Part shown: positions 33,229 through 50,900 of the stretch, one piece after another
Position numbering within the stretch: the first letter of the stretch is position 1
Layout of the letters: each line of letters starts with the position of its first letter
NCBI GenBank assembly: GCA_964569695.1
Contig: CAZMUA010000002.1
Span: forward strand, 2,185 to 66,184
Reading direction: 5' to 3'
Source of the DNA: an uncultured Woeseiaceae bacterium
GTDB lineage: Bacteria; Acidobacteriota; Vicinamibacteria; Vicinamibacterales; UBA823
DNA length: 64,000 nucleotides
Program-made: the position numbers and the translations under genes
Notes under the pieces: model-generated
Told to the model about the DNA's origin: nothing
The model's input: the letters and a program-made list of their open reading frames with translations, nothing else
Databases searched by the model: none

Positions 33229-33635
33229 GATGACTCCTTAGGTTGTTCGGCGCGGCGCTGAACAATTCCGTGCAGGTTATTTTTCTTAAAGCTCAGTGTT
33301 TGCTCAATTTCCTGAATTTCAAATGAAATTCCCAAGGGTGTCGTTTCGAACAAGGGCTGCAGCTCATCGCAGATGGCATCAAAGATCGCTTCACCTACTC
33401 GTCGTTTAGCTTGGGTTTCACGACCTTGGGCAATTCGAAGTACCAAATGAATGAATCCATTGTCTGGATGACCATCGGCAATCCGGTAGATGTCGCGGGC
33501 CGTTGCACGGGTTCTTACGGCGCCGAGCTTGAACATACCAGTTTCGAGTGCTGCGGTATGGACGCGGTCAACAAGCGTCTGGACCTCAATTTTTCCAGCT
33601 AAATTCGATGAGTACTCGATGATTATGTGTGGCAT
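33225..33635 (-). CDS. hpaF: 5-carboxymethyl-2-hydroxymuconate delta-isomerase
   Basis: From the ATG at 33635 the protein reads MPHIIIEYSSNL...ISFEIQEIEQTLSFKKNNLH. It is collinear with E. coli HpaF/HpcD as I recall it (MPHFIVECSDNI...LSFEIEELHPTLNFKQNNVH). The upstream 96 codons of the track ORF are an artefact. Confidence 0.9.
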   Translation of the reverse strand: MPHIIIEYSSNLAGKIEVQTLVDRVHTAALETGMFKLGAVRTRATARDIYRIADGHPDNGFIHLVLRIAQGRETQAKRRVGEAIFDAICDELQPLFETTPLGISFEIQEIEQTLSFKKNNLHGIVQRRAEQPKESS

Positions 33636-33663
33636 TTGATAGAAAATACTTGCAGTGTTGATT

Positions 33664-33677
33664 GTTAACATGTTAAC
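33664..33677. promoter_or_regulatory. Perfect 14-bp palindrome GTTAACATGTTAAC in the divergent hpaF / dapA-like intergenic region. It is a candidate operator.
   Basis: Read directly from the sequence. It is self-complementary over all 14 nt and lies 29 nt upstream of the hpaF start and 71 nt upstream of the 33748 start. MarR-family regulators bind short palindromes. Confidence 0.4.
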
Positions 33678-33747
33678 TATGTTGTCGTCAAGTCGATTCG
33701 ATTTACATGAGGAATAACGTCGCGTTTGTTTTAGGGAGGCTCGTTGT

Positions 33748-34650
33748 ATGGTCATGTCGATTGATCGTTTAAAAGGTTCGATACCGCCGATTATCACACC
33801 ATTCCACTCGGATACCCTTGAGATCGATGAAGAGACTTTTGCAGGGTTGGTTGAGCACCAGATTAAGAATGGTTCGCACGGTGTCTTGATTAATGGAACT
33901 TCCGCCGAACCGTCTACACTCACGGTCGATGAACGAAACCGACTTGTGACTCTAGCGGTTCAAGTTGCTGACGGTCGGGTGCCGGTGGTCGCAGCTACGG
34001 GTTCGCAATCCTTGGTCGAGACCCAGGCACTGACTGACCATGCCGTGCGGATAGGAGCGGATGCACTCTTGATCGTCACGCCGTACTACATTAAGCCTCC
34101 TCAACGAGGCCTCATTCAGTATTACCTTGAACTGACTGCTTCGCATGATGTTCCTTGGATGATTTATCACATTCCTGGACGTGCTTCGGTAAGTGTGACG
34201 CAAGAAACGCTTGGAGCGATAGCTGAGGCTTCACCAAACTTCGTGGGAATGAAGCAAGCAGTCAACAATCTCGGATTCATCTCAGAATGCCTTGCAGCTC
34301 GGGGACCACAGTTTCGAATTTTTGTTGGCCTGGAAGAGTTGAGCTATCCAGGCATGGCAACAGGAGCCTGTGGCCTGATGAACGCGGTGGGAAACCTTCG
34401 GCCACGGGTTTTGGTTGAATTATGTGAGGCCATCTGGAATAACGATCTAAAGTTGGCGCGGTCGCTTCACGAGCGTTTGCTTGAAGTTAATCAGGCAGTA
34501 TTTTTTGAAACTAATCCGATTCCAATTAAGTACATGATGAAACGGTTGGGTCTCATCCAGTCGAATGTTCATCGACTTCCCATGTCCCCGGCTCCTCCAG
34601 AGCTAGAGCGACGTCTGGACCAGGTTTTGGACCGAGCTGGTTTGCTCTAA
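33748..34650 (+). CDS. DapA/NAL-family class I (Schiff-base) aldolase-type lyase
   Basis: GTSAEPSTLT (compare GTTGES), a Tyr-containing TPYY block and VGMKQA (catalytic Lys region). The 300-aa length is typical of the DHDPS family. Confidence 0.75.
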   Translation: MVMSIDRLKGSIPPIITPFHSDTLEIDEETFAGLVEHQIKNGSHGVLINGTSAEPSTLTVDERNRLVTLAVQVADGRVPVVAATGSQSLVETQALTDHAVRIGADALLIVTPYYIKPPQRGLIQYYLELTASHDVPWMIYHIPGRASVSVTQETLGAIAEASPNFVGMKQAVNNLGFISECLAARGPQFRIFVGLEELSYPGMATGACGLMNAVGNLRPRVLVELCEAIWNNDLKLARSLHERLLEVNQAVFFETNPIPIKYMMKRLGLIQSNVHRLPMSPAPPELERRLDQVLDRAGLL

Positions 34651-34659
34651 TGGGAGCTA

Positions 34660-35553
34660 TTGGTGAAACTTTTAAGTTTTGAAATTGCATCCAAAGCATC
34701 ATTTGGCGTAATCGTTCAGGATGGTGTTTTGGAACTAGCGGACCGATTGGGGAGTGAGGTGCACTCCGTTCAATCACTCTTCGAGTTGCAGGCGCTTGGG
34801 CTGGTCCAGGAGTTGATTGAACATTCAGAACCGGACCACTCTCTAGACGCTATCGAATTTCTACCGCCAGTGCCCACTCCTCAGAAGATCTTCTGTGTTG
34901 GAGTTAACTACACCAACCGCAATGAAGAGTATAAGGATGAGTCAACGCTTCCGAAATACCCAAGTATCTTTATGCGGACGCCTGGGTCATTCGTTGGGCA
35001 CCACGGTTCCATCGCTCGTCCGCCGGAATCCAACAAACTAGACTACGAAGGTGAGATTGCTATTGTAATTGGAATCGGGGGACGTCGAATTTCTCAACAG
35101 GATGCTGCACGGCATATTGGCGGCTTGACCTGCATGAATGAGGGTACGATTCGGGATTGGACACGGCACGGAAAATTCAACGTCACTCAAGGGAAAAACT
35201 TTGACAGAACGGGGTCGTTTGGTCCGTGGATTGTGACAGGCGATGAATTTAGTAGTTTTGAAAACCTTAGTGTGACCACTCGGGTCAACGGAGAAATACG
35301 ACAGAACGATTCCACGGCCAACCTGCTATTTCCATTCAGCTATCTAATTTCCTATATTTCGACATTTTCGGAACTGGTTCCAGGAGATGTCATTGCGACA
35401 GGGACTCCAACAGGTGCCGGTGTTCGCTTTGATCCGCCAAGGTATCTTGAACCGAACGATCTACTTGAAGTTGAAGTGTCGGGAGTAGGAACGCTAGTAA
35501 ACCGTGTTGTTGACGAAGCTGTCCGTAATCCGCTCAGTGGAGTTAAAGAATGA
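34660..35553 (+). CDS. Fumarylacetoacetate hydrolase (FAH) family protein, HpaG-like single catalytic domain
   Basis: Carries the FAH-domain blocks KIFCVGVNY, DYEGEIAIVIG and GDVIATGTPTG. The start is TTG at 34660 or GTG at 34663, after tgggag. Confidence 0.8.
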   Translation: MVKLLSFEIASKASFGVIVQDGVLELADRLGSEVHSVQSLFELQALGLVQELIEHSEPDHSLDAIEFLPPVPTPQKIFCVGVNYTNRNEEYKDESTLPKYPSIFMRTPGSFVGHHGSIARPPESNKLDYEGEIAIVIGIGGRRISQQDAARHIGGLTCMNEGTIRDWTRHGKFNVTQGKNFDRTGSFGPWIVTGDEFSSFENLSVTTRVNGEIRQNDSTANLLFPFSYLISYISTFSELVPGDVIATGTPTGAGVRFDPPRYLEPNDLLEVEVSGVGTLVNRVVDEAVRNPLSGVKE

Positions 35554-37460
35554 GCCGCAAGCGAGGCACGGTCGATACGTCGTTGCGGGATTTCTCTCGC
35601 TCGTTGCCAATGGCCTTGATGCGTACTCGTGAGTCTGTAATGGAGCAGTTTCGGCCGCTTCTCCGCGAGCATGGTCTTACTGAGCAACAGTGGCGTGTGC
35701 TAAGGGCGCTATCCGGGGTGAAGAAAGTAAGCGCTAGTGAATTGGCTGAGATCACTTGTATTAGCATGCCCAGTCTTTCGCGCATTCTCGGTCACCTTGA
35801 GGAAACCGGTCTGATTGTTCGTCGGGCCCGCCCGAAGGATCGACGGAGCATGTTTGTTTCGCTCGAGGCAAAAGGGCGAACGTTGATTAAGAAGGTCGGT
35901 GTTCAGTCTGAGTGGCGCTATGTCGAGATCAGCAAGTGTTTCGGGAGTGATCGTTTGGCAATTCTCTACGAATTACTTGAAGAGTTGGAGACGAGTCTGA
36001 AACCGGGCAGCCCGGCGGTCGAACCTGCAGGCGCACAACGCCCTGACAATATAGCTCTACCTCCTAAGAAGATGAGGGAACTTGGTTATGCTGCGGTCGA
36101 CATGCTGGTCGAGCATTTCCAAACTGTGTCTGAGAAACGGGTCATCGACGACTATGAGTGGAAACCTGCAGACAGCATACTGACCAGGCCGTTCAGTGAG
36201 TCGGGGAAAGACCCGCACGAAGTCATGAAACTGGCGATGGATGAAATCTTTAATCACTCGATGCAGTTGAATCATCCTAGATACTTTGCCTATGTGCCAG
36301 GTTCGGGAAACTTCATTGGAGCATTGGCTGAACAACTCATTTCTGGTTTCAATCCTAATTGTGTGACCAATCAGGGAAATTTGGGGCCGATTATGGTCGA
36401 GCGTAATACCGTCAGCTGGTTGTGCCAACAATTCGGCTTACCGGATGGAGCGAGTGGTCTGTTTACTAGCGGTGGATCATCGGCGAATCTGATCGCTCTG
36501 ACTGCTGCGCGCCATATGAAATTGAATGATGAAATTGAAAATGCCGTGGCCTACTGCACTAAGGAAACTCACCGTTGCATAGGTCGAGCCTTGCGTATCT
36601 TGGGTTTTAAGGATGAACAACTTCGGATGCTGGAACCTGATCAAGATTTGCGCATGGTTCCGGACCGTCTAATTGCAGCTATTCAGCAGGATCGTGCTGC
36701 TGGAAAACGTCCTTTCTGCGTAGCAGTCAGTGCAGGTACTACCAGCAGTGGGGCAGTAGATCCTCTTGACGACATGGCTTCTATTTGTCGGACCGAATCC
36801 TTATGGCTGCATGTAGATGCAGCTTTTGGTGGAGGAACTATCCTCACCAAGCGAGGCCAAATTCGTATGAAGGGGATTGACAAGGCAGACACTATTGCTG
36901 TCGACCCCCATAAATGGTTTTTTCAGCCATATGAGTGCGGCTGTGTGCTGTCCAGAGATCCAGCTTGGTTATACGAAACCTTTCGGGACGTGGCTGTGTA
37001 TGAACGGGACACCGATGCTGGTGGAGCGAACATGAACTATCGGGATATGGGAGTGCAGCGGTCACGAAACTTTAAGGCATTCAAGCTCTGGATGTCCCTA
37101 CAAGTGTTTGGTGTTGAAGCATTTCGTCGTGCTGTAGACCACGGACTGGACTTGGCAGAAAAGGCTGAGCAAATTCTTCGTAGTAGACCACATTGGGAGA
37201 TTGTGACACCCGCAACACTCGGCATTGTGACTTTTCAATACCGGTTACCCGATCTCACTGAGGATGAAATTGAGAACATGAATGAAGCTATGACCACCGC
37301 GTTGTGCCGGACAGGCTACGCGTATATGAGTACGACTCTCATCTATGGGCGCAGGGTTCAACGGTTGTGTCTCAACCGTCACGATGCGATTGAAGAGGAT
37401 TTACTGGAGACGGTCAGCCGGCTGGAGTCGATCGCGAAGAACCTAGGACTCGCTCGCTGA
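35550..37460 (+). CDS. Fusion protein: HpaR-like MarR-family winged-helix regulator (aa ~20-150) joined to a group II PLP-dependent (aromatic-L-amino-acid / tyrosine-type) decarboxylase (aa ~175-636)
   Basis: One uninterrupted 636-codon frame. The N-terminal part resembles E. coli HpaR as I recall it (FRP...HGLTEQQWRVLRAL..., PSLSRILGHLEETGLIVRR, DRRSMFVSLEAKG). The C-terminal part has SGGSSANL, HVDAAFGG and VDPHKWFF (Lys455, nt 36912-36914). The ATG overlaps the upstream stop (ATGA at 35550-35553). Confidence 0.8.
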   Translation: MSRKRGTVDTSLRDFSRSLPMALMRTRESVMEQFRPLLREHGLTEQQWRVLRALSGVKKVSASELAEITCISMPSLSRILGHLEETGLIVRRARPKDRRSMFVSLEAKGRTLIKKVGVQSEWRYVEISKCFGSDRLAILYELLEELETSLKPGSPAVEPAGAQRPDNIALPPKKMRELGYAAVDMLVEHFQTVSEKRVIDDYEWKPADSILTRPFSESGKDPHEVMKLAMDEIFNHSMQLNHPRYFAYVPGSGNFIGALAEQLISGFNPNCVTNQGNLGPIMVERNTVSWLCQQFGLPDGASGLFTSGGSSANLIALTAARHMKLNDEIENAVAYCTKETHRCIGRALRILGFKDEQLRMLEPDQDLRMVPDRLIAAIQQDRAAGKRPFCVAVSAGTTSSGAVDPLDDMASICRTESLWLHVDAAFGGGTILTKRGQIRMKGIDKADTIAVDPHKWFFQPYECGCVLSRDPAWLYETFRDVAVYERDTDAGGANMNYRDMGVQRSRNFKAFKLWMSLQVFGVEAFRRAVDHGLDLAEKAEQILRSRPHWEIVTPATLGIVTFQYRLPDLTEDEIENMNEAMTTALCRTGYAYMSTTLIYGRRVQRLCLNRHDAIEEDLLETVSRLESIAKNLGLAR

Positions 37461-37502
37461 CTTGTTACGTGATTTGTTAATGCTTTTTGTTAGAGAAATA
37501 TT

Positions 37503-39563
37503 ATGAGTACTATCAGGATAGGAATTGATATTGGAGGTACGTTCACTGACATCATTCTGTTTGATGAGACCGAAGGTATCTATCATTCAGCAAAAACACA
37601 TTCCACCCCACCTGACCAGTCACGTGGTGCTGTGATCGGTATTGACAAGATACTGAAGCAAACGGGGTGTCAGGGTTCACAGGTTGGGTACCTCAGCCAT
37701 GGCACGACAGTGGGTGCCAACGCGGTCCTTGAAGGCAAACTAGCGAGAACCGCCCTGATTACGACAAAAGGATTCAGGGACGTACTCGAAATCGGTCGCC
37801 AGCGCCGGCCGCGTCAATATGACTTTCAGGCTGTCAAGGACCGCTTATTGGTGCCAAGAGAGTTACGCTTTGAAGTGACCGAACGTGTCGATTACGCAGG
37901 TAATGTGATTGTTCCTCTCGAAGACAGCGAGCTCACGACTATCATTGCAACGCTGAAAGAAAAGAAAGTTGAGGCAGTTGCGGTCTCTTTCCTATTTTCC
38001 TTTTTGAATGGTCAACACGAACAGACAGTTAAAGAAATACTTCAGGAATCGTGCCCTGAGATGAGTGTGTTCATCTCATCAGAAGTGTTACCGGAATATC
38101 GGGAATATGAACGCACATCCACCGTTGCGCTTAATGCGGCTGTGTCTCCTGTAGTTTCACGATATGTGGAAAATCTCCAATCTCGAATTTCTGCAGAAGC
38201 CGACATCAGCGTGGGTCTGAACTTAATGAAATCCTCTGGTGGTCTGATGCCGTCAACTCAGGTCAGCAGTCGAGCGGTGGAAACCGTGCTGTCTGGCCCA
38301 GCTGCCGGTGCCATCGCGATTGCTTTTTTTGGTGGCATGGCAGGATACGAAAACCTCATTGGATTTGATATCGGCGGTACGAGTACTGACATTAGTATCG
38401 TAACCGGTGGTAAACCTCGGGTCACTTCAGAAGGGCGGATTGGAGGCTATCCGTTTGCCTTGCCGATTATCGATATCAATACTATTGGAGCTGGTGGTGG
38501 CAGCCTAGCCTATTTGGATGTGGCAGGTGGTTTGCATGTTGGTCCTGAGAGTGCCGGTGCAGCACCAGGCCCAATTTGTTATGACGCGGGAGGTAAGACT
38601 CCGACGATTACCGATGCGAACTTGTGCATGGGTCGCTTGAATCCAGAATTCTTTTTGGGTGGAGAGATGAAGGTTGATAAGGCGGCTGCGGAACGTGAAA
38701 TAGAGAAGCAGATCGCCAAGCCAATGAATAAAACTCTGGCACAGGCTTGCCAGGGAATTTTTGATGTGAGCCTTGCAAATATGGTTAGGGCTGTCAGGGT
38801 CTCGTCTATTGAAAAAGGACTAGATCCGCGAGAGTTTGCGTTAGTGGCGTTTGGGGGTGGGGGAGCGCTGTTTACGGCAGACGTGGCGACGGAACTGGGA
38901 ATTGGTACAGTGGTCGTGCCTGAAGAGGCGGGTTTACTATCAGCAAAAGGTTTATTGGTGACCGATCACAAGAATGACTACAGCATAACCCGGATTTCCC
39001 TTCTCGATGAGACTGACAAAGATGAACTCGTAAAGCAATTTGAAGAAATGAAAGGGCAAGCGATTGAGGACTTCAGGAACGATGGAGTTAATGTCGATAA
39101 GACCCATTTCTTGTATAGCCTCGATTTACGTTATTCGGGTCAAGCTTATGAGATCACGATACCCATCCCTGGGGAGATTCAGAATCTGTCGTTTAAAGAA
39201 ATTAAAAAGCTGTTTAATGCGACTCACAAGCGTCTCTACTGGTGGAGCGACCCCGAACGAGTACTTGAAATTGTGAACCTTCGTATTTCCGCTATTTCGT
39301 TTGTGCCAAAAGGGACGCCTGTGGTAAACAAGCTTTCCACGGCGGATAGCACCCATGCGATTAAGGCAACTCGCCCTGTGTATTTCAAGCACTATGGTGA
39401 TTTTCATGACACCAGTATCTATGACCGTACTCAGCTGCTCTCTGGAAACCAGATTACCGGGCCGGCCATCATCGAGAGCTATGACACGACAGCCGTTGTG
39501 CTGCCGGATAATAACGCCAGCATTGACAGCTATGGCAACATCATCATTTCCATCGGGAGTTAA
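37503..39563 (+). CDS. hyuA: Hydantoinase/oxoprolinase family, A (ATP-binding) subunit
   Basis: N-terminal IGIDIGGTFTD, a second DIGGTSTD block, 686 aa, and a B subunit immediately downstream. Confidence 0.85.
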   Translation: MSTIRIGIDIGGTFTDIILFDETEGIYHSAKTHSTPPDQSRGAVIGIDKILKQTGCQGSQVGYLSHGTTVGANAVLEGKLARTALITTKGFRDVLEIGRQRRPRQYDFQAVKDRLLVPRELRFEVTERVDYAGNVIVPLEDSELTTIIATLKEKKVEAVAVSFLFSFLNGQHEQTVKEILQESCPEMSVFISSEVLPEYREYERTSTVALNAAVSPVVSRYVENLQSRISAEADISVGLNLMKSSGGLMPSTQVSSRAVETVLSGPAAGAIAIAFFGGMAGYENLIGFDIGGTSTDISIVTGGKPRVTSEGRIGGYPFALPIIDINTIGAGGGSLAYLDVAGGLHVGPESAGAAPGPICYDAGGKTPTITDANLCMGRLNPEFFLGGEMKVDKAAAEREIEKQIAKPMNKTLAQACQGIFDVSLANMVRAVRVSSIEKGLDPREFALVAFGGGGALFTADVATELGIGTVVVPEEAGLLSAKGLLVTDHKNDYSITRISLLDETDKDELVKQFEEMKGQAIEDFRNDGVNVDKTHFLYSLDLRYSGQAYEITIPIPGEIQNLSFKEIKKLFNATHKRLYWWSDPERVLEIVNLRISAISFVPKGTPVVNKLSTADSTHAIKATRPVYFKHYGDFHDTSIYDRTQLLSGNQITGPAIIESYDTTAVVLPDNNASIDSYGNIIISIGS

Positions 39564-39566
39564 GAG

Positions 39567-41204
39567 ATGCCCCAAATCGATCAAGTAGAAGTAGAGGTTT
39601 TGAGTAACCACTTGATTTCAATCGTCCACGAGATGGGAGCGATTCTCAGGAGAACTTCGTATTCCCCAAACATTCGTGAGCGTGAGGACTGTTCGTGTGT
39701 ATTGGCTGACACGACAGGACAAATTATTGCCCAAGCTGAACATATTCCTGGTCATTTAGGAATGCTAACGGTCGGCATACCTTATCTGCTCAAGCACTTT
39801 CCACCTAATACGCTGAATGAGGGCGACGTGTTTATGTTCAACACGCCGGAAGGTGGTTCGCACTTACCAGATATTCGGATTGTAGTACCGATTTATCACG
39901 ATGGTGAACTAGTTGGTCTTTCAGCGAATTTGGCTCACCATGCGGATGTAGGTGGCATGGTGCCGGGCAGTATGCCGTCCAAATCAACTGAAATATGGCA
40001 GGAGGGTCTCATTCTTCCGCCGTTAAAGCTGTATAGCAAGGGTGTTCTAAATAAGCCGGTGATGGACATCCTTATGTACAACGTTCGTACGCCCACCGAA
40101 CGGGAGGGGGATCTGAATGCCCAGATTGCGGCCGCACAACTCGGACAGCGTCGAGTACAAGAAGTGATTCGGAAGTCTGGGTTGTCTTACTGGAAAACCT
40201 ATACCGAGGGCATTCTGGATTATTCCGAGCGGTTGATGCGGGCCAAAATTAGAGAGAGATTTCCTGACGGAAAGTACTATTCGGAGTTGTTTATTGATGA
40301 TGATGGTATGGATGATGAACGGATCAAGATTGCGGTCACCGTGACGGTCAAGGATGACTCAGTCAAGGTTGACTACAGCGGGACAGACAAACAGAGAGCA
40401 TCTGGCGTGAATTGCATTCTGGCTAATTGTGTGTCTGCAGCCTACTTTGTCGTCAAGGCAGTGGCTGACCCAACAATTCCAGTAAATTCTGGCTGCTATC
40501 GCCCAATTGAAGTGTATTGCCCGGAAGGTACTATCATTAGTCCTGATCCCACAGCGGCTATTGGTGCTGGAAACGAGACGTGGCAACGAATTGCAGAGAC
40601 TTTGGTGGGAGCCGTGTTACAGGCTGATCCCTCTATCGTGAAGGCCCATTCACACGGGTGCATGAATAACACGGTATTTGGTGGCACTGACCCAAGAACC
40701 GGAAAGGTGTACACCTACTATGAGACTATTGGCGGCGGTGATGGAGCGCGGGCATTAGCTGATGGGATGGATGGTGTGCATGTCATGGGTACCAACACGA
40801 TGAATACGCCGGTTGAAGTTGTGGAGATGTACTATCCGCTCACGATTGAGGAATATAGCCTGCGACGGGACACAGGTGGTGTTGGAAAACATCGCGGTGG
40901 CCTCGGGATTAAACGGAAGTATCGTGTTGAAGGTCACACCTCCACCTTGACTGCTAATAGTGATTGGATCAAGCAGAAGCCAGATGGCACTGAGGGCGGG
41001 GGCAGAGGCGCCATGACTCGTTTAGTCATTAATGAAGGAACCGATAGGGAAGTCATCCCGGGGTTTTGTAAAGTAATGCAAAAGCTGCAACACGGTGAAA
41101 CCTTCACTGTCTATAGTGGAGGTGGTAATGGCTATGGCGATCCCGCTGATCGAGATCAGACTCTAGTCGAACGTGATCTGCTCGATGACAAGATTAGTTC
41201 ATAA
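39567..41204 (+). CDS. hyuB: Hydantoinase B / oxoprolinase family, B subunit
   Basis: HyuB-like throughout (e.g. REREDCSCVLAD, GGGDGARA, GGGNGYGDP). It starts 3 nt after the hyuA stop. Confidence 0.85.
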   Translation: MPQIDQVEVEVLSNHLISIVHEMGAILRRTSYSPNIREREDCSCVLADTTGQIIAQAEHIPGHLGMLTVGIPYLLKHFPPNTLNEGDVFMFNTPEGGSHLPDIRIVVPIYHDGELVGLSANLAHHADVGGMVPGSMPSKSTEIWQEGLILPPLKLYSKGVLNKPVMDILMYNVRTPTEREGDLNAQIAAAQLGQRRVQEVIRKSGLSYWKTYTEGILDYSERLMRAKIRERFPDGKYYSELFIDDDGMDDERIKIAVTVTVKDDSVKVDYSGTDKQRASGVNCILANCVSAAYFVVKAVADPTIPVNSGCYRPIEVYCPEGTIISPDPTAAIGAGNETWQRIAETLVGAVLQADPSIVKAHSHGCMNNTVFGGTDPRTGKVYTYYETIGGGDGARALADGMDGVHVMGTNTMNTPVEVVEMYYPLTIEEYSLRRDTGGVGKHRGGLGIKRKYRVEGHTSTLTANSDWIKQKPDGTEGGGRGAMTRLVINEGTDREVIPGFCKVMQKLQHGETFTVYSGGGNGYGDPADRDQTLVERDLLDDKISS

Positions 41205-41235
41205 TCTCGGGTTTGAGGTGTAGCGGATAAGCGGT

Positions 41236-42594
41236 ATGTCCAATCGAGAGAGTTTTTCCTCCAGGTCAGCCTTTATGCTGACGGCCATTGGAATGGCTGT
41301 TGGTCTCGGCAATATCTGGCGATTTCCTTACATAATGGGCACCAATGGTGGTGCTGGCTTCCTCTTTATCTACTTAGTGACTGTTTTTTCTGTCTCCATG
41401 CCTATTTTGATCATGGAGCTCATCATTGGTCGCCGTGGCCAGGCTAATCCGGTTGATAGCGTCATTAACGTTGCCAGAGAATCTGGAGTTTCATCAAAAT
41501 GGAAAATTATTGGCTTGGTAGGAGTGTTGAACAACGTCCTGACGCTCTCTTTCTATTTTGTTGTAGCTGGTTGGGTATTGGCCTATGTGCCCAAACTGCT
41601 TAACGGTTCTTTGATTACCGATTCAAGCGACACCGTCTCTTCCAGTTATTACAGTCTGTTGTCGAATCCGCTACTGGTTATCTTTTGGCAAACTCTCTGC
41701 ATCGTGTTTGTCGCAGGCATGCTTCTTAGGGGTGTCAAGGGTGGACTGGAAAGAGCTATGAAGATCATGATGCCCGCTCTATTCGTGTTACTTCTGGCAC
41801 TTGTCGTCATTTCCTGCAGTGTTGGTAATTTCACTGCAACACTGAACTTTCTGTTTAGGCCCAGCACTTCGGGTATCACTTCCGAAGTGTTTCTGGTGGC
41901 CTTGGGTCAAGCATTCTTTACGATGGGTGTGGGTGGAAGCGCTGGGATCGTGTTTGGCAGCTACCTCAAAAAGAATCAGACCTCTCTCGCCTCCTCGGGA
42001 CTGGGCATCGCTCTTGCTGACACCAGCGTCGCAGCCTTGGCCGGATTTGCCGTGTTTCCAATTGTGTTTGCTAGAGGCATCTCCCCTGCACTTGGCGAGG
42101 AGTTAGTTTTTATTACGATGCCTTTAGCCTTTTCCGAAGTGCCGTTTGGTGCCTTTCTCTACACGCTATTTATGGCGATGTTGTCAATGGCTGCTCTGAC
42201 TTCTGCCATCGCGATTTTTGAGATACCGCTCACATGGATTACGGAGCGCCTTCAAGTGGCTCGTAGGAAGGCGATTGTACTGTTAGCCGGTTTTCTCTGG
42301 CTAGCAACAATGCTGGTGTCATTCTCATTTAACCTATTGAGTGAATTTCATCCGCTGGTATTCATTAATAGATTTGAAACGAGCACTCTTTTCGATTTGG
42401 TGATGTTTGCCAATCTTGAGGTGTTCTTTCCGTTGGGCGCGCTGCTGGTAGTTATTTTCTTTGCATACAGGTTGGATAAAACAATCGCTTTGGATGAATT
42501 GAACTGGAAGGAGAGTCGCATTACTGCCCTTCTTTACATCCATGCCAGGTATTTGATTCCATTAGCCATCGTCATTATGATGGCTGCCAGTTAG
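41236..42594 (+). CDS. Sodium-dependent transporter, NSS/SNF family (second copy in the window)
   Basis: Carries the signature GMAVGLGNIWRFPYIMGTNGGAGF and about 12 TM segments. Confidence 0.85.
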   Translation: MSNRESFSSRSAFMLTAIGMAVGLGNIWRFPYIMGTNGGAGFLFIYLVTVFSVSMPILIMELIIGRRGQANPVDSVINVARESGVSSKWKIIGLVGVLNNVLTLSFYFVVAGWVLAYVPKLLNGSLITDSSDTVSSSYYSLLSNPLLVIFWQTLCIVFVAGMLLRGVKGGLERAMKIMMPALFVLLLALVVISCSVGNFTATLNFLFRPSTSGITSEVFLVALGQAFFTMGVGGSAGIVFGSYLKKNQTSLASSGLGIALADTSVAALAGFAVFPIVFARGISPALGEELVFITMPLAFSEVPFGAFLYTLFMAMLSMAALTSAIAIFEIPLTWITERLQVARRKAIVLLAGFLWLATMLVSFSFNLLSEFHPLVFINRFETSTLFDLVMFANLEVFFPLGALLVVIFFAYRLDKTIALDELNWKESRITALLYIHARYLIPLAIVIMMAAS

Positions 42595-42640
42595 AGATGG
42601 TAACTGCCAAGTAGGTGTTTGCCTGTAGGAGAGTAATGTC

Positions 42641-44344
42641 ATGTTTGACCGCATGCAGTTATTACGATGGACTGTTTGCCTCGGCCTCGTATTCTTCGGC
42701 GCCTGTTCGACAGGGAACGAAAATGTCGAAGAAGAGCCATCCAATACAACCACGACCCAATCGACCCGTCCCAACATCCTTTTGATCGTTGCTGACGATT
42801 TAGGGTATGGAGACATCGGTGCTTTTGGCAGTGAGATTGATACCCCAGAGCTTGATGCACTCGCCCGGGACGGGGCGCGTTTTACTAGGTTTTACACGCA
42901 GGTCTCCTGTTCGCCCACGCGGGCGCTGCTCATGACCGGTGTGGATAATCATCTTAATGGTTTGGGAACGATGGCTGAAGATCTCTTGCCGCATCACGAT
43001 GGAGTGCCAGGGTATGAGGGTTACCTGAATGACAGGGTGGTCACTGGTGCCCAGTTACTCAAGGACGCAGGCTACCATACCTACCTGACCGGGAAGTGGC
43101 ACTTAGGGTTGACTCCCGACAAGTATCCCTCTCAGCGTGGCTTTGAGCGTACATACGCCTCGTTGGTTGGAAACGTGAATCACTTTAATGGCCGTTACCT
43201 TGAGGATGGAAAAATTATCAATGGAGATGGATATTCAAGCAATCTATTTACTGACAAATTAATTGAAGCGATTGAAAGTAATCATGGGGATGGGCGTCCA
43301 TTTTTTGGAGCGCTTCTGTTTACTGCACCGCATTGGCCGCTCCAGGCACCGCCGGCATTGATTGAGAAGTACTTGAATCGTTATGTAGACGGTTGGGATG
43401 TGACGCGGCAGGGACGCTTCGAACGTCTGAAGGAGATGGGTTTGGTGCCCGCCGATATGGGGTTACCACCAAGAATAGAAGAGGTTCCGGATTGGAGTGA
43501 TCTGACAGACAAGGAACGTCAGATTGAGACCAAGAAGATGGCAATATATGCGGCGATGGTCGACAATCTTGACACCAACGTCGGTCGTATTCTTGACCTA
43601 CTTGAGACACTCGGTGAGTCCGAGAATACACTGGTCGTGTTTATGTCAGACAATGGCACCGATCCCTATGATAGAAGTCAACGACCCATGTACGTCGCAC
43701 GCCGAACAGAACTAGGTCTCAATACCAGCTATGAGGACATGGGAACAGACAAGTCGTACGTCTTCTACGGGCTTGGTTGGGCTCAGGTTGGTTCAGTGCA
43801 TCATCGGCACTACAAATTCTTACCATCGGAAGGTGGCATGCATGCTCCGATGATTGCTCGTTTTCCAGGGGTGTTGATACCGGGTGATGACCTGGATGCA
43901 TTTGCTAGTGCTGTCGATATCACGCCGACATTCCTGGACGTTGCTAATGTGGAACACCCTGGGACGGAATACCGTGGGCGAGAAATCTACCCAATGCGAG
44001 GACGTTCGCTACTACCTTACATGAGCGATAGTCTGAATGTTCCCTACGGTGACGACGACCCGGTTGCGTTTGAAATCTATGGGCACAAAGTTGTTTTTAT
44101 GGGTCCGTGGAAAGCTGTTCAGTTGCGCCAGCCGTGGGATCAAAGTATTTGGCGCCTATACAACTTAAATCTGGATCCTGGTGAACAGCAAGACCTCGCG
44201 TACGACGAGCCTGAGGTGTTAACGATACTGATAGACGCGTATGAAAGTTTTGCAAAAGAAAATGGCGTAGTGGATGAGCCAGCCGATGTGCCGCCCTTTC
44301 CTTACAAGCCTGGTCATCTTGGGGACCTGATTGTTGAACGTTAG
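42641..44344 (+). CDS. Arylsulfatase (formylglycine-dependent sulfatase family), probable lipoprotein
   Basis: LLIVADDLGYGD and the C-x-P-x-R maturation motif in CSPTRALLMTG. The signal peptide ends with a lipobox-like FFGAC. Confidence 0.9.
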   Translation: MFDRMQLLRWTVCLGLVFFGACSTGNENVEEEPSNTTTTQSTRPNILLIVADDLGYGDIGAFGSEIDTPELDALARDGARFTRFYTQVSCSPTRALLMTGVDNHLNGLGTMAEDLLPHHDGVPGYEGYLNDRVVTGAQLLKDAGYHTYLTGKWHLGLTPDKYPSQRGFERTYASLVGNVNHFNGRYLEDGKIINGDGYSSNLFTDKLIEAIESNHGDGRPFFGALLFTAPHWPLQAPPALIEKYLNRYVDGWDVTRQGRFERLKEMGLVPADMGLPPRIEEVPDWSDLTDKERQIETKKMAIYAAMVDNLDTNVGRILDLLETLGESENTLVVFMSDNGTDPYDRSQRPMYVARRTELGLNTSYEDMGTDKSYVFYGLGWAQVGSVHHRHYKFLPSEGGMHAPMIARFPGVLIPGDDLDAFASAVDITPTFLDVANVEHPGTEYRGREIYPMRGRSLLPYMSDSLNVPYGDDDPVAFEIYGHKVVFMGPWKAVQLRQPWDQSIWRLYNLNLDPGEQQDLAYDEPEVLTILIDAYESFAKENGVVDEPADVPPFPYKPGHLGDLIVER

Positions 44345-45333
44345 ACGTCGTTGGTGAAGCGTGAAGCAATTTTCTTTGACGCGTATTGTCCTGTGAGCAA
44401 GAGGGTCAATCCAAGGGCTAAGGAAATGCCTGCGATTGAAGCCGCATAAACCGTTCCCATCGAGACGACAACGACGCGATAGGTTCCTCTCACCCAGAAC
44501 AAATATTGCACTGCTACATTAGCCACGATGATTTTATTTAGACGTCCAGCGTAAGCACACATAATTAGAGCCCACGCCACTAGAAACAGGTTGGCTGGTA
44601 ATTTTGCGAAGACCGTACCAAGGCCTGCTGTGTATTGAGGTTCCCAACAATCCCAACATGCGACACGCATGAGCCACATCCACAGGCGATGGATAGCTGG
44701 ATCAAAAGTCCAGAAAAGTATCATCAAGGCATGGTCTTTATGCAGAAGAAAATTTTTCCGCCTGGCATATGCCACGGCTAGAATCGTATTAATAGCGACC
44801 CCAAAACCCATAATCCAGGTGTAAATACCTGCCTGAAAGAAGGGGCCGTTCACTCCTTCGCTAAAATCATGAATAAAGGTCCAAACCCAGCCACCAGCGA
44901 GTGCGGTACCGACAAGAGCGGTAAAGGCGACGATCCTGCCATTGATGCGATGGGTCTTAAGTCCTGATTTTTTGTCTCCAGTCAGTAGTTGGATGCCGAT
45001 TAGGCAAAGAAAAATTGAGGTTAAGACGATATGGACCCAGAGAGGTCCGTCAACGTCTATGTGGGGTTTTTGTTGATTGACCGACCATACAACACCTGTA
45101 GTCAGAATGATGTAAAGGGAAGGGGCAAATCCTGCTGCACTCATCAGTAGTAGCAGGAGACCTCCTCGTTTATACGCGACAGTTTGACGGAGATTTTTCC
45201 CTGATTGATCTGAAAAAATCCAGGATGACTTCTTGTGGTCTAAAAAAAACCAGATTGCTAGGACTAAACAAGTCCAGGTAATCACAGCTAGTACTAGAGG
45301 GAACTCTCTTACGAAAAATCCGGTATTTGTCAT
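44341..45333 (-). CDS. Polytopic membrane protein of unknown function
   Basis: 330 aa with about 8 hydrophobic segments and no motif I recognise. Its 3' end overlaps the sulfatase stop by 4 nt in convergent orientation. Confidence 0.6.
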   Translation of the reverse strand: MTNTGFFVREFPLVLAVITWTCLVLAIWFFLDHKKSSWIFSDQSGKNLRQTVAYKRGGLLLLLMSAAGFAPSLYIILTTGVVWSVNQQKPHIDVDGPLWVHIVLTSIFLCLIGIQLLTGDKKSGLKTHRINGRIVAFTALVGTALAGGWVWTFIHDFSEGVNGPFFQAGIYTWIMGFGVAINTILAVAYARRKNFLLHKDHALMILFWTFDPAIHRLWMWLMRVACWDCWEPQYTAGLGTVFAKLPANLFLVAWALIMCAYAGRLNKIIVANVAVQYLFWVRGTYRVVVVSMGTVYAASIAGISLALGLTLLLTGQYASKKIASRFTNDV

Positions 45334-45599: not shown

Positions 45600-46922
45600 A
45601 TGCAGGAATATATATCCAAACTGTTAGACCGAAATGAAATGCGCATCGTTGACCGAGAGGTCAACCCCAAACACGAGCTAGCAGCAGTTGTTGCTAGATC
45701 TCAAAAGGAAAGTGCGCTTCCCATTTTGTTTAAACGGGTCCAGGGAACCGAGTTTCCGGTGGTATGCAATCTTTACGGTAGTAGGTCGCGCCTGAAAGAA
45801 ATGGTTGGTGCCGGTGAGAGAGGTTTTTGTGAACACTGGGCGGAAACGATTAACGACGGGATGTTGCTGGGTGATGATTATCCGACAGTCGTGGATATGT
45901 CCGGGGAACTTCAGAAGGGCCAGCTTTCAGATCTGCCGCAAATAGTCTGGCGCGAGAAGGACGCGGGACCTTATATCACTGCCGGTGTTGCAATTGCTAA
46001 GGACCCTGAAACTGGCGTGCCCAATCTAGCTTTTAGTCGGGCGATGATGATTGATGATAAGGAAATGCGTTGTTGCATAGATGTGGTGCAAGATCTTGCT
46101 AAGTATCATGCGAAAGCAGCAGCCATGAATAAACCATTGGAAATGGCTTGGTTAATCGGTGTCTCGCCGGCCGTATTCATGGCGGCATGCACCTCGATCT
46201 CTCTTGACCAGGATGAACTGAAAATTGCGGCTCAGCTGAATGGGGGCACTTTACCGATGCGTCAGTGTCAAGAACTGGATTTATTGATTCCAGCGGACAC
46301 CGGAATCGTTATCGAAGCACGGATCCGTCCTGACGAGCGCCGACCGGAAGCCCCATTTGGCGAGTTCATGGGTTATTACTGTAAAGAGAACAGGGGTTAC
46401 GTTGCTGACATTGCTGCAGTCAGTTGGCGCACTGGTTCATATTTTCAGGGATTATTATGCGGTTCAAGAGATGACCTCACGGCGATCTACGCGACTTATG
46501 CGACTCGGGTATACCGGAACCTAATTGGAGAGCTTCCAGGGATCATTGATGTTGCCTGTAACACCACGCTGTACTGCACAATTGTGAAGATCGACAAACA
46601 GTATGAAGGCCATCCGCAGCACGTCATGCTTAAGGTGTTCGCGACGAATCCTCATTACAATTTTGCATGCATGGTGGTAGACAGTGATATCGACATTAAT
46701 AATCTCAACGATGTGTGGTGGGCCTTTTTGGCGCGTGGCCCCGTCGATAAGCGCACCATGCTGATTGAGAACATACCGGGGGGATATGAATACCCTGAGG
46801 ACAACCCGCACAGGGGGCGTATCGGGATTGATGCTACCGCACCCTATGGCAGACTCGATGAGTTCCGACGGACCAGCACCCCGGGGGAAGACACGCTGGA
46901 TCTTTCTGAGTACTTGGCTTAA
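45600..46922 (+). CDS. UbiD-family (prenyl-FMN-dependent) decarboxylase
   Basis: The N-terminus ...LLDRNEMRIVDREVNPKHELAAVVARS...PILFKRVQG and the overall layout are UbiD-like. No ubiX is present in the window. Confidence 0.8.
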   Translation: MQEYISKLLDRNEMRIVDREVNPKHELAAVVARSQKESALPILFKRVQGTEFPVVCNLYGSRSRLKEMVGAGERGFCEHWAETINDGMLLGDDYPTVVDMSGELQKGQLSDLPQIVWREKDAGPYITAGVAIAKDPETGVPNLAFSRAMMIDDKEMRCCIDVVQDLAKYHAKAAAMNKPLEMAWLIGVSPAVFMAACTSISLDQDELKIAAQLNGGTLPMRQCQELDLLIPADTGIVIEARIRPDERRPEAPFGEFMGYYCKENRGYVADIAAVSWRTGSYFQGLLCGSRDDLTAIYATYATRVYRNLIGELPGIIDVACNTTLYCTIVKIDKQYEGHPQHVMLKVFATNPHYNFACMVVDSDIDINNLNDVWWAFLARGPVDKRTMLIENIPGGYEYPEDNPHRGRIGIDATAPYGRLDEFRRTSTPGEDTLDLSEYLA

Positions 46923-46957
46923 CAATTACAGCCGTACGGTGGTCGGGTCTCAAGCTT

Positions 46958-50862: not shown

Positions 50863-50900
50863 AAGGTGGTGACCTAGACTGTTAGGAACGCCACATTCGG

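Follow-up and report, generated by a model that had tools for sequence, protein, structure and literature searches.

A seven-gene block with an HpaR-decarboxylase fusion in an uncultured Woeseiaceae bacterium: a probable weld of a homoprotocatechuate operon end and a peripheral module

The window, a 64,000-nucleotide stretch of DNA from an uncultured marine Woeseiaceae bacterium, contains seven closely packed genes on the plus strand at positions 33748–34650, 34660–35553, 35550–37460, 37503–39563, 39567–41204, 41236–42594, and 42641–44344. The gaps between them are 9, −4, 42, 3, 31, and 46 nt, exactly as the first-pass annotation had reported, and each of the seven starts is preceded by a Shine-Dalgarno-like motif. 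The domain order from gene 1 to gene 7 is DHDPS family, FAH, HpaR plus Pyridoxal_deC, Hydantoinase A, Hydantoinase B, SNF, and sulfatase. A terminator scan gave 15 sites against 12.3 ± 3.9 in shuffled sequences; all the plus-strand sites were intragenic and none fell in the six gaps, in agreement with the earlier statement that no terminator separates the genes. No Rfam element was found between 30000 and 58500. Gaps of 42, 31, and 46 nt would suit an operon without proving one, and intragenic promoters are possible. HpaB and amine oxidase are absent from the block, as had been claimed for hpaBC and amine oxidase; the sole HpaB-like gene of the genome is on a different contig, in an unrelated cluster, and scores under the family cut-off. 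On the minus strand, a convergent gene (44341–45333) for a polytopic membrane protein of 330 aa, with a hydrophobic sequence and a weak, sub-threshold DUF2306 match, closes the block; it is conserved solely in contigs of the same lineage.

Three minus-strand genes diverge from the block, and their profile matches bear out the earlier assignment to hpaF-hpaE-hpaD. The LigB-type, Fe-dependent homoprotocatechuate (HPC) 2,3-dioxygenase gene hpaD (30817–31683; TIGR02298, 389.9 bits, cut-off 315.95) and the 5-carboxymethyl-2-hydroxymuconate semialdehyde dehydrogenase gene hpaE (31708–33228; TIGR02299, 762.2 bits, cut-off 638.35) exceed the thresholds of their models. The match of hpaF, for CHM isomerase (33225–33635), aligns positions 1–125 of the 126 in NF011605 to residues 97–221 of the long ORF; the score, 96.3 bits, is below the cut-off. 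The true start of hpaF is at about 33635, internal to this longer ORF (33225–33923), and the intergenic region thus becomes 112 nt long. Within this divergent promoter region lies a perfect 14-bp palindrome, GTTAACATGTTAAC (33664–33677), a candidate HpaR operator. It occurs once in the window; when up to three mismatches are allowed, one match is found against 2.39 expected, which is within chance. The intergenic region of a genome from the same order (G022) keeps just a half-site-like ATGTTAAGTAT, and conservation of the palindrome is partial.

Gene 1 (33748–34650) encodes a DHDPS/NAL-family class I aldolase (PF00701, 235.8 bits), putatively acting on 2,4-dihydroxyhept-2-ene-1,7-dioate. Its best match is TIGR02313, named "HpaI-NOT-DapA", at 272.6 bits against a cut-off of 396.7; it scores 243.3 against the dapA model TIGR00674, above that model's cut-off. 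An ortholog occupies the equivalent position in G022. Gene 2 (34660–35553) encodes a single-domain FAH-family enzyme (PF01557, 216.5 bits), which might be an HpaG-C-like OPET decarboxylase/isomerase or a hydratase; its TIGR02303 score of 156 bits is below the cut-off of 276.4. The arrangement resembles the hpa/hpc cluster of E. coli W/C in that HpaD, HpaE, and the HpaR domain exceed their equivalog cut-offs in NCBIfam, the alignment of HpaF is full-length, and the catabolic genes diverge from a promoter region with a palindrome. However, the MarR-type repressor HpaR of E. coli is here fused to an enzyme and followed by four extra genes, and hpaBC, hpaX, and hpaA are missing. By family models, the lower HPC pathway is incomplete: one FAH domain is present instead of the two of HpaG, a DHDPS-type class I aldolase stands in for the class II HpaI, and no HpaH was found above the cut-off in the genome.

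Gene 3 carries both domains in one frame of 636 aa. The N-terminal half (residues 1 to about 149; 35550–35996) is a complete HpaR-type MarR winged-helix domain (TIGR02337, 140.6 bits, cut-off 121.2, model positions 1–129 of 130) with 59% identity to the standalone 152-aa HpaR of G022. The C-terminal half (36039–37460) is a full-length group II PLP decarboxylase (PF00282, 214.9 bits), short of the unfused forms by just about four N-terminal residues and 76%, 69%, and 62% identical to unfused proteins of L011, L020, and L013, respectively. According to the alignment and residue map, the linker LKPGSPAVEPAGAQ (35997–36038) is the weld of two ancestral genes, joined end to end with each part complete. 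His341, Asp423, and Lys455 (in DPHKW) align with solved decarboxylases, so that the PLP His/Asp/Lys set is conserved. The closest PDB entry is the tryptophan decarboxylase 4OBU (304.9 bits; also 4OBV), and the best NCBIfam match is a diaminobutyrate decarboxylase model, far under its cut-off. Between strains, dN/dS was 0.066 for the HpaR half and 0.13–0.16 for the decarboxylase half: purifying selection acts on both.

Gene 3 is similar to the MocR/GabR regulators (GntR wHTH plus fold-type I PLP domain) and to trigger enzymes such as PutA in its N-terminal winged helix, short linker, and dimeric fold-type I PLP domain. Unlike MocR/GabR, its DNA-binding domain is of the MarR/HpaR and not the GntR type, and its PLP domain is not a degenerate aminotransferase but a group II decarboxylase with intact catalytic residues, 69–76% identical to free-standing enzymes. 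Furthermore, the fusion is restricted to a single lineage. The 636-aa protein belongs to a cluster of 87 members (NCBI, Tara, MGnify, JGI) and is also present in L023 and L028, and no other HpaR-decarboxylase fusion was found among the top matches from 1.84 billion representatives.

A sequencing or assembly error that deleted the hpaR stop codon would produce the same picture, the "operon" then being an assembly chimera. The assembly is MAG-like, with 43 contigs, and the G010 copy is on a probably mis-binned contig. Nevertheless, the frame and gene order recur in independent assemblies from other samples at strain identities of 93–100% (L023, L026, L028; Tara, MGnify, JGI, NCBI), and the junction DNA is identical to that of G010 across 181 nt. 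Such an artefact is extremely improbable, and it was rejected because independent assemblies share the frame and the gene order.

Genes 4 and 5 encode the two subunits of an ATP-dependent lactamase of the hydantoinase/oxoprolinase/caprolactamase family, namely the ATPase subunit HyuA (37503–39563; PF05378, PF01968, PF19278) and the hydrolytic subunit HyuB (39567–41204; PF02538, 608.6 bits). The caprolactamase equivalog models gave 561.6 (CapA, HyuA) and 242.1 against cut-offs of 1000. The closest PDB entries to HyuA are N-methylhydantoinase (469 bits) and 6YRA (titled 5-oxoprolinase; 404 bits). HyuAB resembles CapAB, N-methylhydantoinase, and 2-oxoindoleacetyl-CoA γ-lactamase in its two subunits, its hyuA-hyuB order, and the lack of a γ subunit, and it shares with these Hyd-family lactamases the full Pfam domain set and a genomic linkage to a Mo-hydroxylase. 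Within the peripheral module, it is the core with the strongest conservation: HyuA is 77% and 71% identical to its orthologs in L022 and L020, and HyuB 85%, 81%, and 70% to those in L022/L029, L020/L037, and L030. No paper was found describing a Hyd-family lactamase whose genes are linked to those for a sulfatase and a carrier of the NSS family.

Gene 6 (41236–42594) encodes an MhsT-like, Na+-coupled amino-acid carrier of the NSS/SLC6 family (PF00209, 131.8 bits; NF037979, 101.5 bits, cut-off 50). The top PDB match is MhsT itself (4US3, 270.3 bits), described as a tryptophan/hydrophobic amino-acid transporter. Its ortholog in L022 (71%) adjoins HyuB, and among 40 relatives only paralogs of at most 38% identity were found, G010 excepted. 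Gene 7 (42641–44344) encodes a lipoprotein arylsulfatase of the formylglycine (Cys) type (PF00884, 180.8 bits) that aligns over its full length (residues 41–546, 456.1 bits) with the P. aeruginosa enzyme PAS/AtsA (1HDH) and shares its CxPxR motif. PAS is a cytoplasmic sulfur-scavenging enzyme. In contrast, the gene 7 protein bears a conserved lipoprotein signal, and its gene belongs to a carbon-catabolic cluster, not to a regulon for sulfate starvation. The lipobox (FFGAC, with Cys22) and the CSPTR motif are unchanged in eight orthologs; this invariant lipobox means that the sulfatase probably acts outside the cytoplasm. The genome has three FGE-domain genes, one about 2.7 kb past the window end. 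An ortholog (68%) heads the HyuAB-NSS block in L022, and two of the four sulfatase orthologs examined are in unrelated contexts.

The block lies inside an accessory aromatic-catabolism island of about 25.7 kb (window about 30.8–56.5 kb). The bin of a sister species (G001) has matches to the window as far as 30821 and again from 56525 onward; its contigs stop at these points, and nothing of the island interior was found in it. Positions 45600–52743 hold a UbiD gene on the plus strand, followed on the minus strand by a CysO-like gene, a Mo-hydroxylase trio, FmdA/AmdA, and LigB. These seem to have been the original neighbours of the module made up of the decarboxylase and HyuAB, as the set adjoins the unfused decarboxylase in L011 (61–79%) and Dec-HyuA-HyuB in L020/L037 (52–72%). 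Farther along are genes for a class III aminotransferase (54332–55693, minus), a HAD protein (55686–56387, minus), and an aldehyde dehydrogenase (56517–58022, plus), with orthologs of 75%, 64%, and 76% identity in L029, where they directly adjoin Sulf-HyuAB-NSS. The naming of the aminotransferase and the dehydrogenase as candidates for an amine-to-acid step is thus strengthened by synteny in a relative. The HpaR domain is the only recognisable regulator of the island, and no enzyme that makes HPC from a monophenol was found there.

Comparison with relatives divides the block inside gene 3. In G022, hpaDEF diverges from DHDPS-FAH-hpaR; the standalone HpaR gene is the last one, and convergent genes come next. 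The identities are 83% for hpaD, 72% for hpaE, 64% for hpaF (136-aa match), 78% for DHDPS, and 64% for FAH, in addition to that of HpaR given above. A conserved hpa operon end (module A) is therefore made up of genes 1 and 2 together with the HpaR portion of gene 3. The remainder is found elsewhere. A Dec(69%)-HyuA(71%)-HyuB(81%) trio lies directly beside UbiD and Xdh/CysO/FmdA in L020, L027, and L037, and genes for a flavin amine oxidase and for an ABC importer of amino acids (Liv type) come next. L022 and L029 have Sulf(68%)-HyuA(77%)-HyuB(85%)-NSS(71%), in an order unlike that of the window, with ALDH (76%), HAD (64%), AT3 (75%), UPF0261 (72%), and an hpaE-like gene as neighbours; this block and the LigAB-FmdA-Xdh/UbiD/Dec(76%) set of L011 are on one contig. 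The decarboxylase half, HyuAB, the MhsT-like carrier, and the surface sulfatase accordingly form a conserved peripheral set (module B) with intact catalytic and targeting motifs.

The complete seven-gene order was seen in one lineage only among the relatives and metagenome contigs compared, where at least six independent contigs carry it (L023, L024, L026, L028, L031, L041). Conservation of gene order, which the first-pass annotation had suggested checking, thus holds within the lineage, whereas relatives carry the sub-modules separately. Likewise, its single operon stands as a compact co-directional unit spanned at the module boundary by the fused gene 3, but not as one conserved operon: judged from these comparisons, the block is a chimera welded inside gene 3 and not an ancient operon. 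A rearrangement probably inverted module B against its old UbiD/Mo-hydroxylase neighbours and placed the decarboxylase gene 3' of hpaR; loss of the hpaR stop would have yielded the HpaR-linker-decarboxylase protein. The fusion physically forces co-transcription across the boundary between the hpa genes and the peripheral module. Given the chimeric origin, such joint transcription may have arisen by chance through the rearrangement and need not mean that the genes serve one pathway.

Taken further, module B might have no functional relation to the lower-pathway hpa operon and their fusion might be fortuitous, with the downstream genes carried along or expressed from internal promoters of their own; module B would then serve another substrate, for instance a non-aromatic lactam (5-oxoproline, valerolactam, or a hydantoin) together with the corresponding amino acid. 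Restriction of the complete order to one lineage agrees with this, as do the separate operons of the modules in relatives with other regulators (an IclR gene in L022), the nearest solved structures of HyuA, and the diaminobutyrate decarboxylase match of gene 3. We nevertheless consider it quite unlikely. The 636-aa frame is kept in all the cluster members and several strains, with both halves under purifying selection. In the L029/L011 relative, hpaE-like and LigB genes, AT3, ALDH, and module B lie within one stretch of about 38 kb, which means that aromatic ring-cleavage genes stay linked to module B despite the different arrangement. In relatives, the hpa genes are close to module B yet outside its operon. 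Furthermore, the G022 sulfatase ortholog lies directly 3' of a LigB dioxygenase gene.

It is reasonably probable that the seven genes constitute a single compact transcription unit, recently welded from two older modules, and that they serve a common pathway, whose substrates and regulation we infer. Outside the cytoplasm, the lipoprotein sulfatase would desulfate an aryl sulfate ester, and the carrier would take up the freed aromatic amino-acid-like compound. The decarboxylase domain would convert this to an arylethylamine, and the aminotransferase and aldehyde dehydrogenase of the island would carry it on to an arylacetate; for a catechol ring, this arylacetate is HPC. Its cleavage to central metabolites would fall to HpaD/E/F, the FAH enzyme, and the aldolase. 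The HpaR domain would bring the whole unit under HPC-responsive control exerted at the divergent promoter. The first-pass annotation had proposed funnelling of a sulfated aromatic amine or amino acid into HPC, with dopamine-, L-DOPA-, or tyrosine-sulfate-like compounds as possible substrates. The PAS-type sulfatase, the MhsT-like carrier, and the tryptophan-decarboxylase-like enzyme are in line with the general idea; however, that scheme indeed leaves HyuAB without a role, as the annotation itself had remarked.

A Mo-hydroxylase and UbiD accompany HyuAB in three separate contexts, namely the window itself, L020/L037, and L030. In the last, XdhMo-HyuA-HyuB comes with two UbiD genes as well as genes for a CoA ligase, enoyl-CoA hydratase, and an arylmalonate-decarboxylase-like protein. 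These partners suggest a lactam-opening step, for which the Hyd-family lactamases cited below offer a precedent. HyuAB would most likely perform ATP-driven opening of a cyclic amide. This amide might be an oxindole- or pyrrolidone-type lactam formed by the neighbouring Mo-hydroxylase, or else the amino acid in lactam or hydantoin form, and the step may belong to the same or a parallel branch.

The same linkage would be expected if module B, together with the Mo-hydroxylase, UbiD, LigAB, and FmdA, degraded an indole- or DOPA-derived N-heterocycle. The Mo-hydroxylase would oxidise the carbon adjoining the ring nitrogen to give a lactam, HyuAB with ATP would open it to an aminophenylacetate-type acid, and the hpa-like meta-cleavage genes would consume this acid instead of dopamine-derived HPC. 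The arylacetic acid would come from the combined action of the decarboxylase, aminotransferase, and ALDH, for instance from tryptophan through tryptamine to indoleacetate, and the sulfatase would act on a sulfated indole or phenol to release the precursor. The nearest decarboxylase structure, a tryptophan decarboxylase, and the description of MhsT as a tryptophan/hydrophobic amino-acid transporter fit this route. A Mo enzyme reportedly produces the 2-oxo intermediate of the anaerobic indoleacetate pathway (Ebenau-Jehle and colleagues, 2012). In addition, Hyd-family γ-lactamases act on 2-oxoindoleacetyl-CoA in indoleacetate breakdown (PMC5214803), and SktIJ is reported as a skatole-induced, caprolactamase-like pair linked to skatole breakdown (bioRxiv 10.1101/2024.12.29.630347). 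The route seems unlikely, however. HpaD, HpaE, and HpaR pass the cut-offs of HPC-specific models, which points to genuine HPC; the known indoleacetate pathway is anaerobic and CoA-dependent, whereas the present setting is aerobic, and the island has dioxygenases but lacks a CoA ligase; and the match of HyuA to lactamases of known substrate tops out at about 470 bits.

The proposed route from an aromatic amino acid to HPC resembles the known one from tyramine or dopamine through the arylacetaldehyde to 4-HPA/HPC and the hpa enzymes, in having a decarboxylase, an amine-to-aldehyde enzyme, ALDH, and hpa genes. It differs in that it would begin at an amino acid, possibly as a sulfate ester, with an NSS carrier, and HyuAB, the Mo-hydroxylase, and UbiD have no place in the known route. 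The amine-to-aldehyde enzyme of the island would be the class III aminotransferase, whereas in relatives the unfused decarboxylases adjoin flavin amine oxidase or aromatic-amine-dehydrogenase-like genes; those of 62% identity lie between pairs of the latter.

Seven plus-strand open reading frames occupy 33748-44344, exactly the positions proposed in the first-pass annotation. The tight packing described there was reproduced (gaps of 9, -4, 42, 3, 31 and 46 nt), and a Shine-Dalgarno-like motif is located upstream of each of the seven starts. The proposed gene content was supported by Pfam and NCBIfam assignments: a DHDPS-family aldolase (gene 1, 33748-34650), a single-domain FAH enzyme (gene 2), one 636-aa frame in which an HpaR-type MarR domain is followed by a group II PLP decarboxylase domain (gene 3, 35550-37460), HyuA and HyuB (genes 4 and 5), an NSS carrier (gene 6), and a sulfatase (gene 7). 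A simple terminator scan, whose count was no higher than that of shuffled sequence (15 versus 12.3 +/- 3.9), gave no site in the intergenic gaps of the block, in line with the earlier reading. No Rfam family, riboswitches and leader RNAs included, matched within 30000-58500. The block is divergent from hpaF-hpaE-hpaD, as had been stated; since hpaF in fact starts near 33635, the intergenic region measures 112 nt. At its other end, the sulfatase stop is overlapped by 4 nt by a gene in convergent orientation (44341-45333, minus strand), which encodes a 330-aa membrane protein. This layout is consistent with a putative operon transcribed as a single unit. It should be mentioned that the polytopic 330-aa protein has a weak DUF2306 match only, and is kept only in contigs of the same lineage.

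Conservation of the gene order, which had been suggested as a check, held in part: the order is repeated in metagenome contigs of the same lineage, but outside the lineage only sub-blocks in other orders were found. Scanning metagenomes with HyuB yielded several contigs, from different samples, that have the same order and 93-100% protein identity. In the same-lineage loci L023 and L028, the 636-aa frame of the fused gene 3 is intact. The corresponding scan of GTDB species genomes returned two loci only. The block is reproducible but lineage-specific.

Three comparisons of related sequences show that the block is a chimera. The first is with G022, a genome of the same taxonomic order but from another family: hpaD (83% identity), hpaE (72%) and hpaF (64%) are divergent from the genes for the DHDPS-family aldolase (78%), the FAH enzyme (64%) and a standalone 152-aa HpaR (59%), after which convergent, unrelated genes follow. 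Therefore, hpaR was the last gene of the ancestral hpa operon. The second is with the closest decarboxylases, which are unfused proteins of ~480-490 aa (62-76% identity). The 76% ortholog, in locus L011, is divergent from UbiD and adjoins a CysO-like gene, a Mo-hydroxylase trio, FmdA and LigAB; the same UbiD/CysO-like/Mo-hydroxylase/FmdA/Lig gene set is located just downstream of the block in the window. Three further loci (L020, L027 and L037) have Xdh-CysO, UbiD, and decarboxylase (69%)-HyuA (71%)-HyuB (81%) in this order, followed by a flavin amine oxidase and a Liv-type amino-acid ABC importer. The third is with L022/L029, on the same contig as L011, where the order is sulfatase (68%)-HyuA (77%)-HyuB (85%)-NSS carrier (71%). 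After the carrier come an aldehyde dehydrogenase (76%), an IclR gene, a HAD gene (64%), a class III aminotransferase (75%), a UPF0261 gene (72%), a LigB gene and an hpaE-like gene. Judging from these loci, decarboxylase-HyuAB and sulfatase-HyuAB-NSS are each conserved outside the lineage with differing internal orders, which is the pattern expected of functionally coupled genes.

The segment from the decarboxylase to the sulfatase is inverted in the window relative to L020, and by this inversion the decarboxylase gene came to lie with its 5' end behind hpaR. Only short, chance-level repeat matches were found at the inversion and island boundaries, and no tRNA gene was found in the window. What had appeared as an odd mix of genes can be described as a defined step in evolution, made up of units that can be tested. 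It is a very recent case of operon building, in which rearrangement and in-frame fusion brought a peripheral pathway under the regulator and promoter that belong to a central ring-cleavage operon.

The decarboxylase fusion was aligned with three unfused decarboxylases and with the HpaR that stands alone in G022. Its HpaR domain is complete, a linker of about 14 residues (LKPGSPAVEPAGAQ) follows, and the decarboxylase is complete except for about four residues at its N-terminus. A junction-spanning query (residues 1-300) was searched exhaustively against 1.84 billion representative proteins; each of the 150 best matches aligned to one half only, so that within that library the architecture is confined to this lineage. 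The 90%-identity cluster of the fusion has 87 members, nearly all of 636 aa, from NCBI, Tara, MGnify and JGI, one of them labelled by NCBI as "HpaR [Acidobacteria bacterium]". An assembly artefact as the origin of the fusion was ruled out by this cluster and by the 636-aa frame kept in independent contigs. Comparison of strains gives dN/dS values of 0.066 (HpaR half) and 0.13-0.16 (decarboxylase half); both halves are therefore maintained. Gene 3 differs from the MocR/GabR transcription factors with a PLP domain, which combine a GntR-type wHTH with an aminotransferase-like AAT fold: its N-terminal domain is of the MarR/HpaR type and its C-terminal domain is a decarboxylase, so the architecture is analogous only. 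A literature search returned nothing on MarR-decarboxylase fusions. Two other rare fusions of the same half-families were observed, a 615-aa protein with a hemerythrin domain fused to Pyridoxal_deC (P0032) and a 452-aa protein whose C-terminal domain is HpaR-like (P0337).

The decarboxylase half matches PF00282 (214.9 bits) and retains the PLP-binding Lys, the Asp facing the pyridine nitrogen and the stacking His. Its DPHKW, HVDAAFGG and ETH motifs align with the matching residues of 4OBU, 4RIT and 7XIN; no NCBIfam equivalog cut-off was reached by this half. Since the His, Asp and Lys in contact with PLP are conserved, the decarboxylase half looks catalytically competent rather than reduced to a mere sensor. 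The closest structure is 4OBU/4OBV (305 bits), a tryptophan decarboxylase from the gut microbiota (PMC7306523). The relatives with 62% identity sit between aromatic-amine-dehydrogenase-like gene pairs. In two ENA contigs (L012 and L013), the 62% decarboxylase is accompanied by an MFS gene, with pairs for the heavy and light chains of methylamine/aromatic-amine dehydrogenase on both sides; the surroundings also include a homocysteine S-methyltransferase-like gene and one of the arginase family.

The sister species G001 (91% complete) is 90-93% identical in nucleotide sequence to the window up to 30821 and again from 56525, and both G001 contigs end there. Nothing matching 30822-56524 was found in G001 or in a second compared genome, G002; as the G001 bin is incomplete, this does not prove absence from the organism. 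The positions at which the G001 match stops and restarts place the seven genes within an accessory island of ~25.7 kb, from hpaD to the HAD gene. No regulator-type gene other than the fused HpaR is evident in the island. The fusion lends itself naturally to testing whether a MarR repressor can be modulated by an enzyme domain.

A copy of the block in the bin G010 was rejected as an independent genome: its island contig shows ~97% protein identity, and its other contigs only 65-71% nucleotide identity to the window flanks. The 21.3-kb contig (PBHT01000009.1) is likely to be mis-binned or very recently transferred. NCBI labels the G010 MAG as Acidobacteria, and SP340, a relative carrying the decarboxylase-to-sulfatase genes, as Proteobacteria.

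A 14-bp palindrome, considered as a candidate operator, occurs as a single site, and one match is within chance expectation. No second copy was found upstream of the other island operons at up to 3 mismatches. The palindrome is only half-conserved in G022, in whose intergenic region no inverted repeat was found.

The hpa part was compared with family models. The extradiol dioxygenase HpaD (TIGR02298, 389.9 bits; cut-off 315.95) and the dehydrogenase HpaE (TIGR02299, 762.2 bits; cut-off 638.35) exceed their equivalog thresholds. The isomerase HpaF aligns over 1-125 of the 126 positions of NF011605 with 96.3 bits, under the cut-off of 215, and its position is kept in G022. HpaR, present only as the N-terminal domain of the fusion, scores 140.6 bits with TIGR02337 over residues 18-146 (cut-off 121.2). 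Gene 2 has a single FAH domain instead of the two of HpaG, and scores 156 bits with TIGR02303 (cut-off 276.4) and 137.7 with PRK15203 (cut-off 811). For the hydratase HpaH, the best TIGR02312 match in the whole genome, on another contig, has 108.7 bits (cut-off 351.5). No HpcH/HpaI domain, that of the class II HpaI aldolase, was found among the window genes scanned. The top model for gene 1 is TIGR02313 (272.6 bits, under the cut-off of 396.7), and the dapA model TIGR00674 gives ~243 bits (242.9-243.3), over its cut-off of 206.15. A role of gene 1 as the pathway aldolase is favoured because the hpa context is conserved in G022. By these models, the lower homoprotocatechuate pathway is incomplete, with HpaH below cut-off genome-wide, one FAH domain in place of two, and a DHDPS-type aldolase. 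Gene 1 is also the sole gene passing the dapA model in this 97%-complete genome; the next best scores 156.7 bits, below the cut-off (compare G000:C12:61880-62713). The explanation is either an unassembled or divergent true dapA, or a wrong name given to gene 1 by automatic annotation.

The operon had been said to lack hpaBC, which encodes the 4-hydroxyphenylacetate 3-hydroxylase; this was confirmed, and no hpaBC was found anywhere in the window. No hydroxylase that would convert a monophenol for the homoprotocatechuate route is linked to the island. A hydroxylase elsewhere in the genome, through which tyrosine or tyramine might feed the pathway, was rejected: the sole TIGR02309 match (contig G000:C4) has 336.9 bits against a cut-off of 480.2 and lies in an unrelated MFS-UbiD-HpaB-LigB cluster. 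In full, this second aromatic cluster (L044, G000:C4:104000-122000, minus strand) consists of a 516-aa protein without assignment, MFS, UbiD, an HpaB-family monooxygenase, a 295-aa protein without assignment and a LigB-like dioxygenase. Another group II PLP decarboxylase is located ~6 kb from it.

HyuAB has the domain composition described for ATP-dependent lactamases (PMC5214803): Hydant_A_N, Hydantoinase_A and Hydant_A_C in the alpha subunit and Hydantoinase_B in the beta subunit, in the order A-B. The two genes are separated by 3 nt and are followed directly by the NSS carrier; there is therefore no acxC-like gene for a gamma subunit. The scores are far below the caprolactamase CapAB equivalogs (NF050156, 561.6 versus 1000; NF050157, 242.1 versus 1000). 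HyuA is closest to N-methylhydantoinase (469 bits), then to 6YRA (404 bits). The carrier matches PF00209 (131.8 bits; cut-off 27) and NF037979 (101.5 bits; cut-off 50), with similarity across the LeuT/MhsT core. [quoted passage not shown] The sulfatase matches PF00884 (180.8 bits) and has the formylglycine-type motif C-x-P-x-R as CSPTR at residue 90, as in the S1 PAS-type enzymes. It aligns over its full length with 1HDH (456 bits), which we take to be the Pseudomonas aeruginosa arylsulfatase. CSPTR and the lipobox cysteine are invariant in eight orthologs, and three genes with the formylglycine-generating-enzyme domain (PF03781) are available in the genome for maturation. Gene 7 is best read as an extracytoplasmic lipoprotein arylsulfatase. 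The neighbourhoods of two orthologs, P0125 and P0134, are unrelated and uninformative.

In a scheme that elaborates the proposal of the first-pass annotation, the sulfatase would cleave an extracellular aryl-sulfate ester, and the freed aromatic amino-acid-like product would be imported with Na+ and decarboxylated to an amine. The class III aminotransferase of the island would then give an aldehyde, which the aldehyde dehydrogenase would convert to an arylacetate for meta-cleavage by the hpa gene products. The aminotransferase and the aldehyde dehydrogenase are syntenic with sulfatase-HyuAB-NSS in a relative, and L020 has an amine oxidase in the equivalent place. The scheme is coherent and now better grounded, and is still an inference. 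It leaves HyuAB without a role, though HyuAB is the best-conserved core of the decarboxylase-to-sulfatase genes.

Mo-hydroxylases convert N-heterocycles to lactams. HyuAB, Mo-hydroxylase and UbiD are linked in three separate contexts, and in the distant locus L030 the Mo-hydroxylase large subunit directly precedes HyuA. Enzymes of the Hyd family are ATP-dependent lactamases (PMC8453981), and include a gamma-lactamase for 2-oxoindoleacetyl-CoA (PMC5214803) and a skatole-induced pair (bioRxiv 10.1101/2024.12.29.630347). From this linkage, chemistry and precedent, HyuAB is proposed to open a lactam, which might lie on the same branch or on a parallel one; the main rival to the sulfate-ester scheme is an indole/oxindole version of this step. 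In the boldest reading, the sulfatase, HyuAB, NSS carrier and decarboxylase, with the Mo-hydroxylase and UbiD that are always close by, would constitute an undescribed aerobic pathway for a sulfated, N-containing marine aromatic compound of indole/oxindole type or derived from DOPA. A lactam made by the Mo-hydroxylase would be opened by the ATP-dependent lactamase to an aminophenylacetate-type acid for homoprotocatechuate-like meta-cleavage. In this lineage, the pathway would be governed by a new trigger enzyme, a MarR-family repressor fused to an active PLP decarboxylase, which would couple the flux of the first cytoplasmic step to transcription. This combined reading seems rather unlikely to be correct as a whole. 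Should the substrate be found, the physiological roles of the ATP-dependent lactamase would extend further than oxoproline, hydantoins and caprolactam.

The family of each single protein and the pathway type of the hpa part are already known. Four features are new: the conserved association of a PAS-type lipoprotein arylsulfatase with an ATP-dependent lactamase, an NSS carrier and an aromatic-type decarboxylase; its steady proximity to Mo-hydroxylase and UbiD; its recent capture by an hpa operon; and the MarR-decarboxylase fusion that records this capture. A literature search gave nothing on any of these, nor on an arylsulfatase linked to homoprotocatechuate. The small conserved module of arylsulfatase, lactamase, MhsT-like carrier and decarboxylase occurs in at least three uncultured marine lineages, and no described function was found for it. 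This makes the module a candidate for a route by which sulfated aromatic metabolites are turned over in the ocean, a well-defined lead rather than a demonstrated new pathway.

Two further neighbourhoods should be mentioned. L030 (Ga0214473_10003004, 1-20021) contains Mo-hydroxylase subunits, an arylmalonate-decarboxylase-like protein, a fumarate-reductase-like flavoprotein, HyuA-HyuB and a class I/II aminotransferase, together with an enolase-superfamily enzyme, an enoyl-CoA hydratase, two UbiD, a CoA ligase and TctC. This cluster looks like an uncharacterised CoA-dependent pathway for a heterocycle or an aromatic acid. In G022, a 68% sulfatase ortholog (P0126) comes after PALP (CysM-like), Prok-JAB and LigB genes, and in the window the CysO-like carrier adjoins the Mo-hydroxylase. 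Sulfur-carrier components of the CysO/CysM/JAB type seem to travel with aromatic genes and the sulfatase.
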